DNA from: an uncultured Lachnospiraceae bacterium
GTDB lineage: Bacteria; Bacillota; Clostridia; Lachnospirales; Lachnospiraceae
Assembly: GCA_951800225.1 (NCBI GenBank)
Contig: CATOJX010000004.1
Location: 6,578-70,577, forward strand
Direction of reading: 5' to 3'
Length of the DNA stretch: 64,000 nt
Below the pieces are notes generated by a model, which was not told where the DNA came from, ran no database searches, and worked only from the letters and a program-made list of their open reading frames with translations. This document shows positions 56,563-63,077 of the stretch, piece after piece. Each line of letters begins with the position of its first letter. The stretch's first letter is position 1. The position numbers and the translations under genes were made by a program.

Positions 56563-57612
56563 TTACTCGCCAACTTCATTTCGAGGAATTAAATAACAAT
56601 TCCCAGATTTATCAGAGATGATGAAACGCTCCTCAGATGCTGAAAGCTGAATATCAGACGGGATAGGAAGTCGCACTTCCTCCATTTTGCTTATGGGTGG
56701 CTTAATGTATTTAACGATGTATTTTCCCATCTCCCTGCCGGCACGGTTTGTAAGCATATTCCACGCATCTTCACCTATTGCGTATCGACCGCCTTCTTCA
56801 ACATATTTTGCTTTGAGCCGGTCTAAAAGCGGGGATGGTGTTGGATCGAATACTATCAGAACAGGGATCAGTCCAGCTCTGTGAGCTTCATAGGGGAAAC
56901 TCATTTCCTCGCTAAATCGTCCTTGCCCACTGGCTGCGATTGTTACACGCAACTTCAACTCATAAGCTTCTCTGGATTACTCGATATAACAATCAATTTG
57001 ACGCCCTTCCTTTGTCGGATTGCCATTATCATCAATGCGCTTAACAGGGGAATATTTGTGAGACATTGGCTCGCCGCCAAGACAGCTTGCTAAAATCGGC
57101 TCAAACAAATACCCTGTTTCCTGCGCACTGCGGTTATCAATGTCATATATAAGCTTTCGCCAACTCATCCATGAAAACAAAAGCGCATCTTCACAATTCC
57201 CGTATTCCAGTAAACATCTCGGTCCTATTTGCTCAGTCAACGGGAACGGTTGAGTTTTTAGGATGTTATAGAACTTAAATCGTCTGCGCCAAAGTTCGGA
57301 CAGATTTTTCAAATAAAGATACATAATATTTTCTGTATTAGTGGCACCAGAAAGTTGCAGATAGTTTATAGCGTCTTCCACTGTCACATCAGGCAACTCT
57401 GCAACCTTTTCCGGGGTAATTGTATAAAAACTTTCTTTGGCAAGTTGACAAAACGGCTCGGAAAACCAATCCGGTTCATTCTCAAAAATATCCAGATAAG
57501 CGATATGGATAAGTAGAACAACATCTTTTGGTTCTATTTCAACCATAGCAACACCAGAACCATGCTGTGAAAATGTTTTATAGAAAACTCGTTGTTGACG
57601 AGATACTGGCAT
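56563..57612 (-). pseudogene. Type II restriction endonuclease candidate interrupted by a single in-frame TAA
   Basis: The 211-aa and 131-aa ORFs are in the same frame, separated only by TAA (56977-56979) plus 6 codons: ...GRQIDCYIE*SREAYELKLRVT.... The stop falls inside a D-x11-E-L-K (PD-(D/E)xK-like) motif. The start ATG lies 4 nt after the methyltransferase stop. Confidence 0.65.
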
Positions 57613-57615
57613 ATT

Positions 57616-58827
57616 TTATACCTCCATTCGCATTTGTTCGTATTCGTGTATTTGTAACGAGCTTAGCATTTTGCAAGTTTTTTGCAAGGCAGGACTTTTA
57701 GCAGATGCTTTAGTTACATCAAATTTTGCTAATGAAGGAGGCTCTTCATTAGGCGTGTTTCTATCACACATAATAATTTGTTTTGCCATTTGTTCAGCAA
57801 ATACAGGCGGGATAGCGTTTCCAATTTGAAGCATTTTCTGTGCATCCGTTCCGCAAAACAAGAAAGAATCTGGGAAGGTTTGCACTCTGGCGCATTCTCG
57901 AATTGTAAGTGTCCTGTTTTGCGTCGGATGGACAAATTCTGATGGTGCAGCACTCGTTATTGTCAAGCAAGGCTCATTGTAAGACAAGCGCTTCAATCCA
58001 GAGGGCGCACCACCCCTTTTTTCGGAAGGTGTTCCATCACATACTCTTCTTGATGCTCTACGCTTGAATGAATCGTGTTGCAAATGTTCTGGCAAGTCTT
58101 TCATCGACTGCCCAATTTTCAATGCAGAAATTCGCTCTAACTGTATTCCGCTTTCAACCTTTCTTATATGGTCAAGCTTGGGAATATCGTGTGTTTCCAA
58201 ATCACCTATTGCATCCCGCAAGGTAAATGACGAGTATTTATATATCGCCCCTGACGCCCTTTCAATTGGATCAGGAAATTCAAATTTTTTTCCTTCTCGA
58301 TTACCGACAATAATGACTCGTTTTCTTCTTTGCGGTACAGCGTATTCTTGCATATATATTTTTTTCAAGCTAACTGTATATCCAAGACTAATCATCTTTT
58401 TTATACATTCAACAACATAAATTCCAGAAGCAGTTGTTAATATTCCTTCCACATTTTCCATCATAAACCATCGTGGATAGAACACTTCTAGTGCTTGTGC
58501 ATAGTTTTGTACCAATTTGTTGCGAGAATCATCCCAAAAACGATTTCCTGCTGTTGTGAATCCTTGACAGGGTGGTCCCCCAATAATTAAATCCAATTCT
58601 CCACGCTGCAACCCCAACTGATTTCTCAGTTGCAAGAAATTACAAGATTCCAAATCGACATTCTGGCAGATATTTGCGCCAAAGTTCATGTTGTAGGTAG
58701 CGATTGCAGCATCTGCATTTTCAAAGGCAGCAAGAATTTCAATACCAGCATTTTTGAAGCCTAATGAGCACCCACCGGCACCTGCAAATAGGCTAATTGC
58801 CCTCCATTGTTTTTTCCATGTATTCAT
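57616..58827 (-). CDS. DNA (cytosine-5)-methyltransferase
   Basis: Motif I FAGAGG, IV GGPPCQGFT, VI ENV, VIII QRRKR and X GNAIPP are all present. Confidence 0.93.
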   Translation of the reverse strand: MNTWKKQWRAISLFAGAGGCSLGFKNAGIEILAAFENADAAIATYNMNFGANICQNVDLESCNFLQLRNQLGLQRGELDLIIGGPPCQGFTTAGNRFWDDSRNKLVQNYAQALEVFYPRWFMMENVEGILTTASGIYVVECIKKMISLGYTVSLKKIYMQEYAVPQRRKRVIIVGNREGKKFEFPDPIERASGAIYKYSSFTLRDAIGDLETHDIPKLDHIRKVESGIQLERISALKIGQSMKDLPEHLQHDSFKRRASRRVCDGTPSEKRGGAPSGLKRLSYNEPCLTITSAAPSEFVHPTQNRTLTIRECARVQTFPDSFLFCGTDAQKMLQIGNAIPPVFAEQMAKQIIMCDRNTPNEEPPSLAKFDVTKASAKSPALQKTCKMLSSLQIHEYEQMRMEV

Positions 58828-58998: not shown

Positions 58999-60004
58999 GT
59001 GGCAAGGACGATTGGGATCGAGAAACAGGATTTTGAGAAAATCATAGTAAACAATAACTTCTATGTGGACAAAACCATGTTTATAAAAGAATGATGGGAA
59101 AATGAGGATGACGTGACCTTGATTACCCGTCCGCGCCGTTTTGGCAAGACCTTGCTTATGAGTATGACAGAGCGCTTCTTTTTTTGCGGAATATGCCGAC
59201 GGCGGTTCTTTATATGAAGGCCTTTTCATCTGGCAGGAGGAGAAGTTCCGTAACCTGCAGGGAACCTATCCGGTTATTTCTCTGAATTTCGCGGATGTAA
59301 AGGAAACATCTTTTTTGCAGGCGAGGAGGAAAGTATGCAGAACCCTCCGGTTTTTGTATGACAAGTATCGGTTTTTGCTGGATGAATACGATACGCCATT
59401 GCAGGAAGCATATGTACATGGGTACTGGGAAGAAATGGTATCCTTTATGGGAAGTCTTTTTAACTCTACGTTTAAAACCAATCCTTATCTGGAACGGGCG
59501 ATTCTGACAGGTATTACCCGTATCAGTAAAGAATCCATCTTTTCGGATCTGAATAATCTGGATAAACAGGTATTTGCAGCGTATTGGGCGAATACCAGCA
59601 GCAATGAGCTGGTGGGAAAACTGATTCGGGAAGGAAGTCCGGATATAAAGATGGTCATGGAAGACCTCCTGAAAGGAGGCTCTTATCATACATGTCTGGA
59701 TGAGCAGGTTGTTTTTTGCCAGCTTGACCGGAAAGAAAGCGCTGTATGGAGCCTTCTGCTGGCAGGCGGTTATTTGCGGGTGGAGCGCTTTTTTATGAAT
59801 ATGGAACGCGGGAGAGAAGAATATGATCTCGTCCTGACAAATAAAGAAGTCCGTATCATGTTTGCACAGATGATCGAAAACTGGTTTCTGGAATATACGC
59901 CGGCTTATAACGGGTTTGTAAAAGCGCTGTTAAAAGGAATCGCGCCGGAACGGATTCGTAAGTATGGTTTTGCCTTTGAAGGAAAACGGGTTATGATTGG
60001 GTAA
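58999..60004 (+). pseudogene. Decayed AAA-ATPase-like / PDDEXK_9-family gene
   Basis: GTG-ARTIGIEKQDFEKIIVNNNFYVDKTMFIKE, then TGA, then WENEDDVTLITRPRRFGKTL. A frameshift follows in a T-run, then AEYADGGSLYEGLFIWQEE...LLDEYDTPLQEAY...ILTGITRISKESIFSDLNNL. Internal segments, including the nuclease core, appear to be deleted. Confidence 0.7.
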
Positions 60005-60042: not shown

Positions 60043-61041
60043 ATGCCATTTATCATGATCAGGGACGATATTGTGAATGTCCGGGCGGATGCGTTGGTGA
60101 ATCCAGCCAACGAGACGTTGTCACAGGGCAGCGGAAGCAGCCGGGCGATCTATCTGGCAGCCGGGGAAGAGAAGCTTACAAAAGCCTGTAAAAAGATCGG
60201 GCGCTGCGGCCTTGGAAAAGCAGTGATTACAGAGGGTTTTGACCTGCAAGCCAAATATATTATCCATGCGGTAGGGCCGGTATGGAGGAACGGCCTGCAC
60301 AGAGAGAAAAAGCATCTGTACAGCGCTTACAAAGAGGCGTTGCTTCTGGCAGAAACTTACCACCTGGAATCCATCGCCTTCCCTCTTCTGTCTTCCGGCA
60401 ACTATGGCTATCCGAAAGATAAAGCGCTAAAAGTTGCCGTCCGTGCGATCCGCGATTTCCTGGCAGAACATGATATGACCGTCTATCTGGTATTGTATGA
60501 TCGGAGTGCGGTGGCTGTGAGTAGGCGGTTGTTTATGTCTTTAAAAGAGTACATAGATGATCATTATGTCCGGAGTAAAGACGAAAGCTACAAAAGAGAA
60601 CCGCCGCTTACACAAAGAGTTTTTCCGGAAGCTCAAAGCGCGTGTCTTTCTATGGCGGATATGCCTGTTTCCAGAAGTCTGGACGATCTGATGGGCCATA
60701 TGGGCGAGACATTTTCCCAGATGCTTTTCCGGCTGATTGACGAGCGGAAACTTAAGGATTCTTATGTATATAAAAAGGCCAATATTGACCGCAGGCATTT
60801 TTCAAAAATACGAAATGATACACAATATGCACCCAACAAAAAGACGGTGCTGGCCTTTTGCATCGCGCTGGAACTTTCTTTGGATGAGACAAAAGACCTT
60901 CTGATGCGGGCAGGCTTCGCCCTTTCTGACTGCTCAAAGTTTGACGTGATTCTCTGTTATTTTATAGAGAACCGGAAATATGATATTTTTGAGATTAACG
61001 AAATGCTTTTTGCCTATGATCAGCCGCTGTTAGGAAGTTGA
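60043..61041 (+). CDS. Macro domain (MacroD/YmdB-like ADP-ribose binding/hydrolase) fused to a C-terminal Xre-like HTH domain
   Basis: Macro motifs VNPAN, GSGSS, YIIHAVGPVW and SIAFPLLSSGNYGYP. The C-terminal about 110 aa (FSQMLFRLIDERKLKDSYVYKKANIDRRHFSKIRND...TVLAFCIALELSLDETKDLL) is HTH-like. RBS GGGAGGTGAGG. Confidence 0.8.
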   Translation: MPFIMIRDDIVNVRADALVNPANETLSQGSGSSRAIYLAAGEEKLTKACKKIGRCGLGKAVITEGFDLQAKYIIHAVGPVWRNGLHREKKHLYSAYKEALLLAETYHLESIAFPLLSSGNYGYPKDKALKVAVRAIRDFLAEHDMTVYLVLYDRSAVAVSRRLFMSLKEYIDDHYVRSKDESYKREPPLTQRVFPEAQSACLSMADMPVSRSLDDLMGHMGETFSQMLFRLIDERKLKDSYVYKKANIDRRHFSKIRNDTQYAPNKKTVLAFCIALELSLDETKDLLMRAGFALSDCSKFDVILCYFIENRKYDIFEINEMLFAYDQPLLGS

Positions 61042-61125
61042 AAAATGTCCCCTGCCAGGAGACCAGAATCGTTGCCGGATCGCCTATACTGCTTTCATAA
61101 TAAAGATGAAAGGCAGGATACAACG

Positions 61126-61794
61126 ATGAAAAAAGGATTGACGGAACTGGTATTTATTCTGGACAGAAGCGGCTCCATGGCAGGGCTGGAAAGCGACACT
61201 ATAGGCGGATTTAACAGTATGATCAAAAAACAGCGGAAGCAAAAAGGGCAGGCCAATGTCACCACAGTGCTTTTTGACGATCAATATGATCTGATTCATG
61301 ACCGTCTTGCCATAGAATGTATAAAGCCTCTTACAGATCAGGAGTACTATGTGCGCGGCTGCACGGCTCTTCTGGACGCGGTGGGGAAGACCATCCGCAG
61401 GATGAAGAAGATTCAGAAAGCGCTTCCGGAATTTGAACGCGCTGAGAAAGTGATCTTTGTGATCACCACCGATGGACTGGAAAACGCCAGCAAAGCATAT
61501 GGATATGCCAAAGTCCGCCACATAATTGAACGGCGGAAGGCGCGTGACCAGTGGGAATTTCTGTTCCTTGGGGCCAACATGGACGCCGTATCGGAAGCAA
61601 AGAAGTTCGGGATAGCCGCTGACCGTTCAGTAACCTTTCAAAACGACAGCCAGGGAGTCGCTACGAACTACCATGTGGTCGGGCAGACTTTAAGCTTTAT
61701 GCGCGCAGCGCCTTGCATGGCGCAGATGGACGGAAGCTGGAAAAAAGAGATTGAGGAAGACTTTAAAAAGCGGAAAAAACAGGTATCAGGGTAA
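61126..61794 (+). CDS. Small cytoplasmic von Willebrand factor type A (vWA) domain protein
   Basis: A complete MIDAS motif: DRSGSM, T in GCTALLDA, and D in TTDGLEN. There is no signal peptide. An alternative upstream ATG at 61045 has an AGGAAG RBS. Confidence 0.8.
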   Translation: MKKGLTELVFILDRSGSMAGLESDTIGGFNSMIKKQRKQKGQANVTTVLFDDQYDLIHDRLAIECIKPLTDQEYYVRGCTALLDAVGKTIRRMKKIQKALPEFERAEKVIFVITTDGLENASKAYGYAKVRHIIERRKARDQWEFLFLGANMDAVSEAKKFGIAADRSVTFQNDSQGVATNYHVVGQTLSFMRAAPCMAQMDGSWKKEIEEDFKKRKKQVSG

Positions 61795-61802
61795 GCTGTG
61801 GG

Positions 61803-63077
61803 CTAATCAATTTTGCTGTGTACCTCGATCCTGCAGGTATGCTTTCGTGTTTTTTTACTGTAGTTTATGTCCACGAGTAAAAGGTTACCATGATAGTTTT
61901 CAAGGCTTTGGCAGTATTCTTTTCTTTTGATCTGCTGTAAAGCACTGTCGGCGCTTTTGTTCCATTTTAATTCGACCAGAAGCGCCGGTTTATCTAAAAA
62001 GCGTTTTCTCGGAAGAAAAACCAGATTAAAGTGTCGGCGGAGTTTTTAAGGGCTTTGGATATCTCTCCCCAGTCAGAAACGGATATGGCGTTGACATATT
62101 CCGCGCGGATTTCATTATTGGGGATGGATGCACATTTATTGTCATAATCGTATCCCAGATATCCCAGATGAATCAGGAGCGTCAGAACATCATTTTCGGT
62201 TCGGAAAGTGGCCATGTCATTTGTAAAACTTTCTGTGTTGACTGGTATGGCTTCTCCGGCAATCATGCTTAGAATATCATCTTTAAGTCCTTCAAAATTC
62301 ATATCGATATAGACCTGCAGTGCTTCAAAGGTCTCCGTCTGATTCCAGTAATTTCCGATCTTTCCAAACTGCAGGCAGCTCACAACAGAGCGGGGATTAT
62401 AGACGGATGGCTCTTCTTTAAATGAATATCCGACGTACCAGCTCTTGATCTCGTCCATGTCTGCTTTATATTTTTTGCACAATGCAGTTACTTCCCGGGC
62501 TGTAAATCCCACATAGGAGGCCAGAGGCCCCGGATTGATCATGGAAAATTCGTCGAACATATTTAGAGCAGAGTGGGTTCCGTACTTTTTGACCGGTAAT
62601 ATGCCGGTCATATATGCCAGATGAATATATCCTTTGTCTTTCAGCAAATCCCGCAGAAAATCCAGATAAAATTCCTGGGCATCTTTGTCCTGTTTGTATT
62701 CCCGGATGATGCAGTCCCATTCATCTATAATAATCACAAAAGGACGTTTTGTATTCTCATAGATATCCTGCATGGATTCGGCCAGATCGGTGTCATCAAA
62801 GTAATACGCATCAGGATATTGCCTTTTCAGGTCACGAAGGACAAGATTTTTGATACGGAGGATTAATTCCGTGATATTGCTGCTCCTGGTCAGAAATTCC
62901 TGTATATTCAGAAAGATTGTGTCATACTGATTCAGGTATTTTTCGAAATCTTTATCAAGGGCAATCCGGTGTGGAGAACAGAGTTGGTATAGCGGATCAG
63001 CCCTGTTTTATCCACATAGACGGCGGAATTGATTGCTTCCTGAAATTTGCTGTTGTCCGGATTTAGATAGATGCCCA
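61803..63077 (-). pseudogene. Second decayed AAA-ATPase-like / PDDEXK_9-family gene (different subfamily, opposite orientation)
   Basis: The N-terminus MGIYLNPDNSKFQEAINSAVYVDKTGLIRYTNSVL is followed by loss of the P-loop segment and a frame change. Next comes a 259+ aa middle ORF (IIIDEWD...). A frameshift near 62000 precedes the C-terminal nuclease part ...PALLVELKWNKSADSALQQIK...LLLVDINY.... Confidence 0.7.

Follow-up and report, generated by a model that had tools for sequence, protein, structure and literature searches.

The window analysed here is a 64,000-nucleotide stretch of DNA from an uncultured Lachnospiraceae bacterium (GenBank assembly GCA_951800225.1, contig CATOJX010000004.1, positions 6,578 to 70,577 of the forward strand). 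Two genes stand in tandem on its plus strand between positions 60043 and 61794: gene A, which fuses a macro domain to a helix-turn-helix (HTH) DNA-binding domain, and gene B, which encodes a small von Willebrand factor A (vWA) protein. The short spacer between them carries a predicted operator, a predicted promoter and a predicted leader hairpin. On comparative evidence, namely domain architecture, synteny of the pair, box-promoter geometry, box-HTH covariation and regulon membership, we consider it probable, though well short of certain, that A is a macrodomain one-component transcription factor controlling B via a conserved operator, in a circuit linked to ADP-ribose or NAD and unlike a classical defence system of the toxin type. 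The identity of the ligand, the direction of control and the biochemical role of B are inferred only. The features of the locus, in window coordinates, are as follows.

60043-61041, plus strand: gene A, macro domain, linker and Cro/C1-type HTH, 332 residues (open reading frame, ribosome-binding site, Pfam, AlphaFold2).
60043-60567, plus strand: macro domain of A, residues 1 to about 175; ADP-ribose-binding residues kept, MacroD Asp/His replaced by Ser33/Tyr37.
60544-60570, plus strand: conserved helix motif EYIDDHYV, residues 168-176; Y170, I171, D172 and Y175 invariant, with a similar motif N-terminal in macro-less paralogues.
60580-60681, plus strand: disordered linker, residues 180-213; predicted local distance difference test (pLDDT) score below 50, variable length in relatives.
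60712-61014, plus strand: C-terminal DNA-binding domain, a five-helix Cro/C1-type HTH (residues 224-289) plus two helices (299-324); AlphaFold2, weak profile matches, box covariation.
61046-61064, plus strand: predicted operator box TGTCCCCTGCCAGGAGACC, the variant TGTCCC-N7-GAGACC of the consensus; same variant kept in the sister species.
About 61068-61127, plus strand: predicted leader hairpin pairing the Shine-Dalgarno sequence (61110-61118) and start codon of B with sequence at or upstream of the -10 box; -16 kcal/mol, z -2.6.
61085-61090, plus strand: TATACT, predicted as the -10 box of the promoter of B and separated from the operator box by exactly 20 nt.
61126-61794, plus strand: gene B, a cytoplasmic single-domain vWA protein of 222 residues with a complete metal ion-dependent adhesion site (MIDAS) and a basic C-terminal tail (homologues, AlphaFold2, phrog_7371).

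Gene A starts at an ATG with the ribosome-binding site GGGAGGTGAGG upstream, and the AlphaFold2 model of the whole protein reaches a pLDDT of 82. Residues 19-132 match the Pfam Macro profile (PF01661, E 7e-35) with 119.9 bits against a cut-off of 22, which places the domain in the macro family. A Foldseek search with the macro model retrieves YmdB and MacroD2 at E 1e-14 to 1e-15 (TM-score 0.89 to the target), and the closest solved relatives are DR_2288, PARP14 macro1/2, YmdB and MacroD2; literature searches on DR_2288 returned nothing. The architecture of macro domain plus HTH and the reading-frame coordinates proposed in the initial annotation are thereby borne out, together with the modelled C-terminal helices and weak HTH profile matches described below.

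The initial annotation had also called the domain an apparently catalytically competent MacroD, which overstates the case for the clade of the window because the MacroD Asp/His pair is replaced. Where the MacroD catalytic loop reads N-x6-GG[VLI]D followed by a His, A reads N23-x5-G-S-G-S-S-R-A-I-Y, with Asp changed to Ser and the following His to Tyr. Among A homologues from 78 species, the two positions are occupied by D/H in 36, by C/F in 31 and by S/Y in 11. In contrast to this variable pair, the residues expected to contact ADP-ribose (D16, N20, N23, G29, G31, S117 and G119) are invariant or nearly so across the A family. We therefore predict that the conserved property of these macro domains is ADP-ribose binding and not hydrolysis via the classical MacroD mechanism. 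Hydrolysis is retained by viral and PARP14 macrodomains without this Asp, and A may therefore be a hydrolase as well. A 553-residue protein (P0002) considered as a fusion of A and B was rejected; it contains the macro half of A twice in tandem, probably through an assembly artefact.

The macro domain is followed by the helix motif and by the disordered linker, which is about 30 residues long in the window and up to about 250 in relatives (P0069; its length also varies in P0006). Homologues spanning just 55% of the A query, considered as new fusions, were rejected since they have the same architecture with longer linkers. The C-terminal domain (about 120 residues) is highly conserved, its helices at 224-289 and 299-324 are modelled with a pLDDT of about 90, and its recognition-helix region reads ANIDRRHFSKIRN. 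Profile searches relate it to Cro/C1-type HTH families: the domain of the window matches HTH_26 at E 1e-3 with 19.6 bits, under the Pfam cut-off of 22, and among 13 members of the A family HTH_26 is matched by all 13, HTH_3 by 9 and HTH_19 by 8, every match lying below the gathering score. A sequence search of the PDB with the HTH domain gave nothing significant.

Searching with the C-terminal domain alone yields a family of 6615 clusters at 50% identity, in all of which the domain is C-terminal. Its members are macro-fused, degenerate-macro or macro-less (120-230 residues), and the latter two forms retain an N-terminal helix resembling EYIDDHYV, for example VGKYIDKYYI. In six members (P0243, P0248, P0294, P0310, P0314, P0317) the MPF..I..DI N-terminus is kept and the macro domain is decayed or nearly deleted, a pattern that points to an ancestral macro-HTH protein whose macro module was lost repeatedly. 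Two further proteins (P0261, 399 residues; P0387, 373 residues) carry the whole unit of helix motif, linker and HTH twice in tandem and would represent a single-chain "dimer" form of the factor.

The second open reading frame extends over 61045-61794. Its homologues are 219-225 residues long, covering 87-88% of the long frame, and in homologous loci the called start of B lies about 80 nt after A. We therefore place the real start at the ATG at 61126, leaving a gap of 84 nt; the alternative longer start at 61045 falls within the operator box. Consequently, the initial description of the second gene stands for a vWA protein with a complete MIDAS, and its longer form is dropped in favour of the 222-residue protein. 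The sequence match to Pfam VWA_2 (E 6e-3) is under the cut-off. The AlphaFold2 model (pLDDT 91) has the vWA fold, and its Foldseek matches are integrin I-domains, ITIH1, C2a and BatB (E 1e-8 to 5e-7). The metal-site residues D13-x-S15-x-S17, T80 and D116 are invariant in 25 homologues. B matches phrog_7371 at E 1e-54, evolves slowly (65-75% identity across families) and gave nothing significant in PDB sequence searches.

The pair is widespread. A and B each fall into at least 8000 protein clusters at 90% identity, and A occurs in at least 600 GTDB species of Bacillota, these homologue counts being lower bounds. Its hosts include Lachnospiraceae, Oscillospiraceae, Acutalibacteraceae, Syntrophomonadaceae, Peptococcaceae, Acetobacterium, several Bacillaceae genera and one metagenome-assembled genome (MAG) of Veillonellaceae. 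Of the 77 species loci that leave room for B, 55 have it less than 400 nt downstream from A and about 12 others have it within about 4 kb, so that the synteny on which the initial annotation made its proposal depend is found across genomes. Each 20 kb locus contains a single A-B pair, and when 1306 neighbouring open reading frames were clustered all against all, no third conserved gene emerged.

Alignment of the A-B spacers reveals an inverted repeat, TGTCGC-N7-GCGACC, directly after the upstream stop codon. A 20 kb locus contains essentially one strict copy of this box, placed 60-100 nt ahead of B. Where inserted genes displace B, or where B precedes A, the box accompanies B and still lies 60-100 nt before it. 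In the window, no further copies beyond chance were found. The sister species, in which A is 92% identical, has the operator variant of the window unchanged even though the spacer sequence differs. Downstream of the box, 57 of 58 leaders have a TAnnnT motif at a distance of exactly 20 nt from GCGACC, every other offset scoring 9 or fewer. The spacing is kept in leaders that place TAnnnT in the loop of a hairpin, in one of its arms or in a terminator stem, and being fixed regardless of RNA structure, it argues for TAnnnT as a -10 element. Relative to this predicted -10, the repeat would span about -50 to -34 with its centre near -42, and no -35 element is recognisable. The assembled contigs of three low-depth metatranscriptomes (depth 2-4) cover B only, a weak hint that B has a promoter of its own.

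The box also tracks the HTH domain of A. Among IMG/VR sequences, B genes at least 49% identical to that of the window mostly come with A and with the box, and loci in which A is 3.5-4.5 kb away still carry it (L097, L104-L106, L109, L111, L112). The box is missing from about 50 phage-type B genes whose loci contain no A; these are 34-54% identical, and many have only about 193 residues. A metagenome scan that started from the pattern box-N20-TATAAT, with no reference to A, returned 108 boxes with at least 500 nt of upstream sequence; for 64 of them, a gene with the C-terminal domain of A ends on the same strand within 400 nt upstream, and for 77 such a gene is present anywhere in the locus. 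Furthermore, the half-sites covary with the recognition helix: 99 GCGAC boxes pair with IDR[KR], while TTGAC half-sites (at least five loci; L089-L091, L096, L108, L115) pair with ISRQ, ISKQ or MSRQ at the start of the helix. A palindromic operator and covariation of specificity, which are comparative evidence only, assign the box to the A-type HTH as its predicted operator.

The genes behind the box define a candidate regulon. Of 114 boxes with at least 400 nt of downstream sequence, 73 are followed by B and 6 by an ADP-ribosylglycohydrolase (ARH) gene; one of the 6 (L259) has the order macro-HTH gene, box, ARH. An ARH gene also follows B directly in 5 of 78 species loci (PF03747, E 2e-73 and 7e-38). 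In three species without B, box-N20-TATAAT lies 4-5 kb upstream of A and heads an operon that ends in A. One box-headed operon (L014, 6000-11080) runs from the box through a 175-residue reading frame, a phosphoribosyl pyrophosphate (PRPP)-synthetase-like gene, a nicotinamide phosphoribosyltransferase (NamPT)-like gene and NadE to A, and looks like a NAD-salvage operon autoregulated by the macro-HTH factor. In two loci (L009, 5124-10993; L011, 5120-10993), the box heads genes for a 537-residue unknown, an fn3 protein and a glycoside hydrolase of GH16/fn3 type, with the macro-HTH gene following. Other genes found behind the box encode a TerY-like vWA protein, an AAA+ ATPase (on a metagenome contig, L212, without B), Sel1-like, Zn-ribbon and DUF1963-like proteins, a recurrent 168-residue unknown and GH16/fn3 proteins; some of these may be chance matches.

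The leader of B is predicted to fold. For the window, the pairing probability of the Shine-Dalgarno sequence is 0.75 in the long form of the transcript and 0.06 in the short form. Leaders of the family, taken from box to ATG, give a median z of -3.5 against dinucleotide shuffles, and their Shine-Dalgarno pairing averages 0.74 in the read-through form versus 0.27 if the transcript starts just after TAnnnT. The pairing partners differ by clade (TTATCCT/AGGATAA, CCTCTCTTT/AAAGAGAGG, ATCCTCCTG/CAGGAGGAT). In five loci (L017, L023, L051, L052, L078), a terminator-like leader takes the place of the helix sequestering the Shine-Dalgarno; it combines a long stem with an inner AAGGT...ACC hairpin and a U-run, and its 5' arm extends over the -10 box. 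From this modelling we infer that the hairpin would pair with the ribosome-binding site of B in transcripts that read through from the upstream gene, making these untranslatable, and that B would be made only when its own promoter fires. A leader of this design, with an inhibitory arm upstream of an internal promoter that silences read-through, may interest students of operon architecture widely. An earlier guess, from back-translation, of a terminator between A and B in the window was rejected, as the actual sequence and a scan show none on the plus strand, and a search of the window against Rfam gave no match at the gathering threshold.

Reading and erasing ADP-ribosylation is mainly the work of macrodomains. 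The mechanism that we propose for A begins with its C-terminal HTH, which most likely binds the TGTCGC-N7-GCGACC repeat, probably as a dimer. The ligand of the macro domain would be ADP-ribose or an ADP-ribosylated molecule, which some family members may hydrolyse as well; expression of B would thereby be tied to the state of ADP-ribosylation or NAD cleavage in the cell. The -42 centre and the missing -35 element resemble activator-dependent promoters such as lambda PRM, and overlap with the -35 region equally allows repression. B itself would be a MIDAS-containing vWA adaptor that binds a protein or ligand in the pathway of the ADP-ribosylglycohydrolases, which elsewhere replace or follow B behind the box; this role is proposed solely from the MIDAS and from the company of ARH genes. 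Two claims of the initial annotation gain from these results. Transcription control is supported by the conserved operator, which tracks B and covaries with the recognition helix of A, and the ADP-ribose theme is reinforced by the ARH genes behind the box, the box-headed NAD-salvage operon and the conserved contact residues.

We know of no characterised bacterial transcription factor that is gated by a macrodomain. Literature searches for macrodomain-gated or macro-HTH bacterial transcription factors turned up none, and the searchable literature yielded no description of the A-B pair, its operator or its factor family. The arrangement at -42 can be compared to that of lambda cI at OR2/PRM, where a Cro/C1-type HTH dimer sits on a 17-19 bp palindrome centred at -42 and can occlude the -35 region and contact sigma. 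The geometry is as predicted for the A box; however, there is no homology beyond the HTH class, and neither cooperativity nor a divergent promoter is evident at A-B.

The closest functional parallel would be NrtR, the Nudix-related transcriptional regulator, which regulates the NAD-salvage genes prs, nadV and nadE and leaves its palindromic operators on ADP-ribose (Rodionov et al. 2008, PMC2330246). Both are one-component factors in which an enzyme-like domain that binds ADP-ribose (in A, by prediction) is fused to a DNA-binding domain. The Prs-like/NamPT-like/NadE operon ending in A adds to the likeness, although it is seen in one locus and most boxes precede B. However, NrtR joins an N-terminal Nudix-like domain to a C-terminal winged HTH, whereas A joins a macro domain, through a long disordered linker, to a Cro/C1-type HTH plus two helices; A is thus no member of that family. 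Its predicted dominant target is a vWA gene and not NAD biosynthesis. We therefore suggest that A would work like NrtR, following the same logic with different domains, without belonging to the NrtR family.

A second parallel is given by the ADP-ribosylglycohydrolase (ARG)-centric systems predicted to counter viral ADP-ribosylation (Iyer, Burroughs, Anantharaman and Aravind 2022, PMC9503650, section 3.8). These combine a sensor-HTH, a vWA "peptide-binding chaperone", an ADP-ribosylglycohydrolase and, optionally, HD or other phosphatases and Macro, with no linked ADP-ribosyltransferase; their regulators are Nudix-HTH or WYL-HTH proteins, and they were reported in actinobacteria, planctomycetes and proteobacteria (PMC9503650). 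The A-B pair likewise has a sensor-HTH and a vWA protein without a linked transferase, the type of sensor being different; ARH genes follow or replace B behind the box, and an HD-domain gene follows B in the phage PV036457.1. In contrast, the ARG core itself is absent from the window and facultative in A-B loci (5 of 78; behind 6 of 114 boxes), while the constant core is macro-HTH plus vWA, in Bacillota, with a defined, predicted operator and promoter. A-B therefore resembles these predicted systems with a different sensor, constant core and host phylum.

Other known systems share single parts with the pair. The macro domain has the fold of MacroD/YmdB and DarG (YmdB and MacroD2 matches) and their conserved adenine- and diphosphate-binding residues, but the catalytic Asp/His is absent in the clade of the window and A is fused to a DNA-binding domain. 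B resembles the vWA proteins of MoxR-vWA and TerY-type systems in being a single cytoplasmic vWA domain with an intact MIDAS; however, no MoxR, kinase or phosphatase gene is adjacent to it, 78 loci hold no AAA+ MoxR or other NTPase gene beside the vWA gene, it is much smaller (222 residues), and its nearest relatives are phage proteins without known function. DarTG-like and MoxR-vWA readings were rejected as their partner genes are absent: A has no DarT or other transferase beside it, no conserved third gene and no PADLOC match. In fact, the observation of the initial annotation that a DarT-like toxin and a MoxR or other NTPase partner are lacking holds across the 78 loci examined, and no ADP-ribosyltransferase or sirtuin was found near the macro-HTH and vWA pair.

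Several points weigh against A as an ADP-ribose-responsive regulator of B. The HTH of A falls under the Pfam threshold, and in the window each half-site of the box differs from the consensus by one position, without any change in the recognition helix. Both the -10 box and the -42 geometry are predictions drawn only from conservation. There is some circularity in the hairpin argument, since the Shine-Dalgarno sequence is bound to be freed once the 5' arm is taken away. The long and variable disordered linker argues against tight allosteric coupling between macro domain and HTH, and the GH16/fn3, Sel1-like and Zn-ribbon genes behind the box have no evident link to ADP-ribose. Finally, macro-less paralogues also precede box plus B (15 cases versus 25 with macro), so the macro domain is not required for control of B. 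We consequently regard the macro domain as a frequent input or activity module of the predicted factor rather than as a requirement for control of B.

The surroundings of the pair bear on whether it belongs to phage defence. In the window, it is flanked by 5'-truncated AAA-ATPase_like (PF09820)/PDDEXK_9 fragments at 59315-60004 (plus strand) and 61994-62773 (minus strand), and a Dcm-type methylase gene and a type I restriction-modification (R-M) hsdR gene lie further upstream. The left flank in the sister species holds hsdM, hsdS and hsdR at the position matching the R-M genes of the window, along with Uma2 and PDDEXK_9 genes; the right flank holds GH3, ABC-transporter and GH94 sugar genes. 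Across 37 species, the 148 flanking genes surveyed include no Pfam family more than three times and no PADLOC family more than twice. PADLOC-DB 2.0 profiles found no family for A or B at E 0.01. These heterogeneous flanks indicate that the defence-island setting is local to the window and not a trait of the family, and the defence-island association put forward in the initial annotation does not hold up, given also the sugar genes of the sister species and the slow evolution of B.

Mobile elements carry the pair as well. It is present in a complete gut phage genome (PV036457.1), with the HD-domain gene after B, and in IMG/VR contigs of 50-70 kb (L097-type) that encode a MobA/VirD2 relaxase and HsdM; given these two genes, the latter "viral" contigs may be integrative and conjugative (ICE)- or integrative and mobilizable (IME)-like elements and not phages. 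Between A and B, two loci (L097, 2417-5899; L023, 11066-15062) hold genes for a 500-510-residue protein without Pfam match, a Y-family polymerase and a YolD-like protein; the unknown protein is 65% identical between the two, and this cassette occurs in IMG/VR contigs and one GTDB MAG. Stand-alone relatives of B are found in 217 phage records, including Streptomyces, Microbacterium and Pseudomonas phages and jumbo phages. This phage-type B (L116-L168, phage records H3-H25) is shorter, at about 193 residues, and common in lytic and jumbo phages. Its neighbours are polymerase, recombinase, exonuclease, ligase-like, ribonucleotide reductase and thymidylate synthase (ThyA) genes, among which no fixed partner was found, and literature searches for phage vWA anti-defence proteins gave nothing.

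It is in this light that the alternatives should be weighed. The pair could be an anti-phage or conflict cassette, in which the macro domain reverses or senses ADP-ribosylation made by an invader and B is the effector or a chaperone for the modified targets. This reading stays in play because gut phage- or ICE-like elements carry the pair and relatives of B are common in lytic phages (217 records; phrog_7371), and it is also consistent with the type I R-M and PDDEXK_9 genes adjoining the pair in the window and its sister species, with ARH as a co-target behind the box and with the analogous ARG/vWA/sensor-HTH neighbourhoods predicted to counter viral ADP-ribosylation (PMC9503650). We nevertheless judge it unlikely: neither protein matches PADLOC, the flanks in 37 species share no recurring defence family, and no toxin, nuclease or NTPase partner is present. 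Moreover, the pair is very widespread at one copy per 20 kb locus, and B, with 65-75% identity across families, is highly conserved, unlike fast-evolving defence genes. Less likely again is a DNA-damage or DNA-metabolism module, in which A would regulate B and nearby repair genes upon damage and B would act in DNA transactions. The neighbours that speak for it are the Y-family polymerase and YolD, which separate A from B in L023 and in elements of the L097 type and follow B in L037, Tag glycosylase between A and B in Acutalibacteraceae, MutT-like NUDIX genes adjacent in five loci and the polymerase, recombinase, exonuclease, ribonucleotide reductase and ThyA neighbours of phage-type B. However, such neighbours occur in a minority of loci, mostly of one mobile-element lineage, most loci having no repair gene; no LexA-type logic is evident, and the scan starting from the box returned ARH and NAD-related genes but no repair genes.

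The least probable of the alternatives, to which we give very little credence, dispenses with the HTH of A altogether: the repeat would be an RNA hairpin riboregulator in the A-B leader, and the downstream hairpin would serve it as expression platform. The repeat, which immediately follows the upstream stop codon, could form a hairpin of 5 bp, the change from GTCGC/GCGAC to GTCAA/TTGAC would keep the pairing, and the downstream arms covary and swap between Shine-Dalgarno sequestration and terminator as in riboswitches. Yet the variant of the window and its sister, GTCCC/GAGAC, breaks the pairing (C against A) and is conserved all the same, and the stem sequence is invariant in 99 loci. The rigid 20 nt to TAnnnT in loop, arm or terminator stem alike, the presence of the repeat at the head of operons 4-5 kb upstream of A and the tracking of half-site changes by the HTH recognition helix also speak against it, and no Rfam family was matched. 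Control of B by the macrodomain factor at a DNA operator thus remains the reading that we prefer.

Should that reading be correct, the A-B module, which is very common in gut and soil Bacillota and has a precise predicted operator, promoter and regulon, could show how Firmicutes sense ADP-ribose or NAD cleavage arising from phage attack, toxins or stress. It would also give a first functional handle on a family of small vWA proteins that many lytic phages carry. A bolder extension, which we put forward as a speculation with the odds against it, is that the C-terminal HTH defines a large, apparently unstudied family of one-component Firmicute regulators acting on a common -42 operator. A macrodomain-gated transcription factor, the first of its kind, would be both the ancestral and the commonest form of this family. 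Beyond being a target, the vWA protein would then be a MIDAS-dependent partner that binds the conserved acidic EYIDDHYV/linker segment of the factor, or ADP-ribosylated clients, closing a feedback loop for ADP-ribosylation or NAD-cleavage stress, a loop that phages would disturb with a stand-alone vWA protein captured for that purpose.

We also note some minor features of the surrounding DNA. In seven Acutalibacteraceae-type loci (L039, L065, L075, L033, L041, L070, L078), an ArsC/Spx-like gene stands between A and B; in some of them a Tag glycosylase gene and a small TIGR04076-like gene are inserted too, and the operator is still just upstream of B. No inverted DNA repeats were detected flanking the cassette in the window, which therefore shows no sign of a composite transposon. 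The PDDEXK_9-type genes of the sister species comprise one full-length copy of 562 residues and small fragments, on the left side only. Finally, two reading frames of 131 and 211 residues without Pfam match lie at 56563-57612 (minus strand), directly downstream of a cytosine-5 methyltransferase-like gene at 57616-58827 (minus strand), and may encode its cognate restriction enzyme, possibly split.

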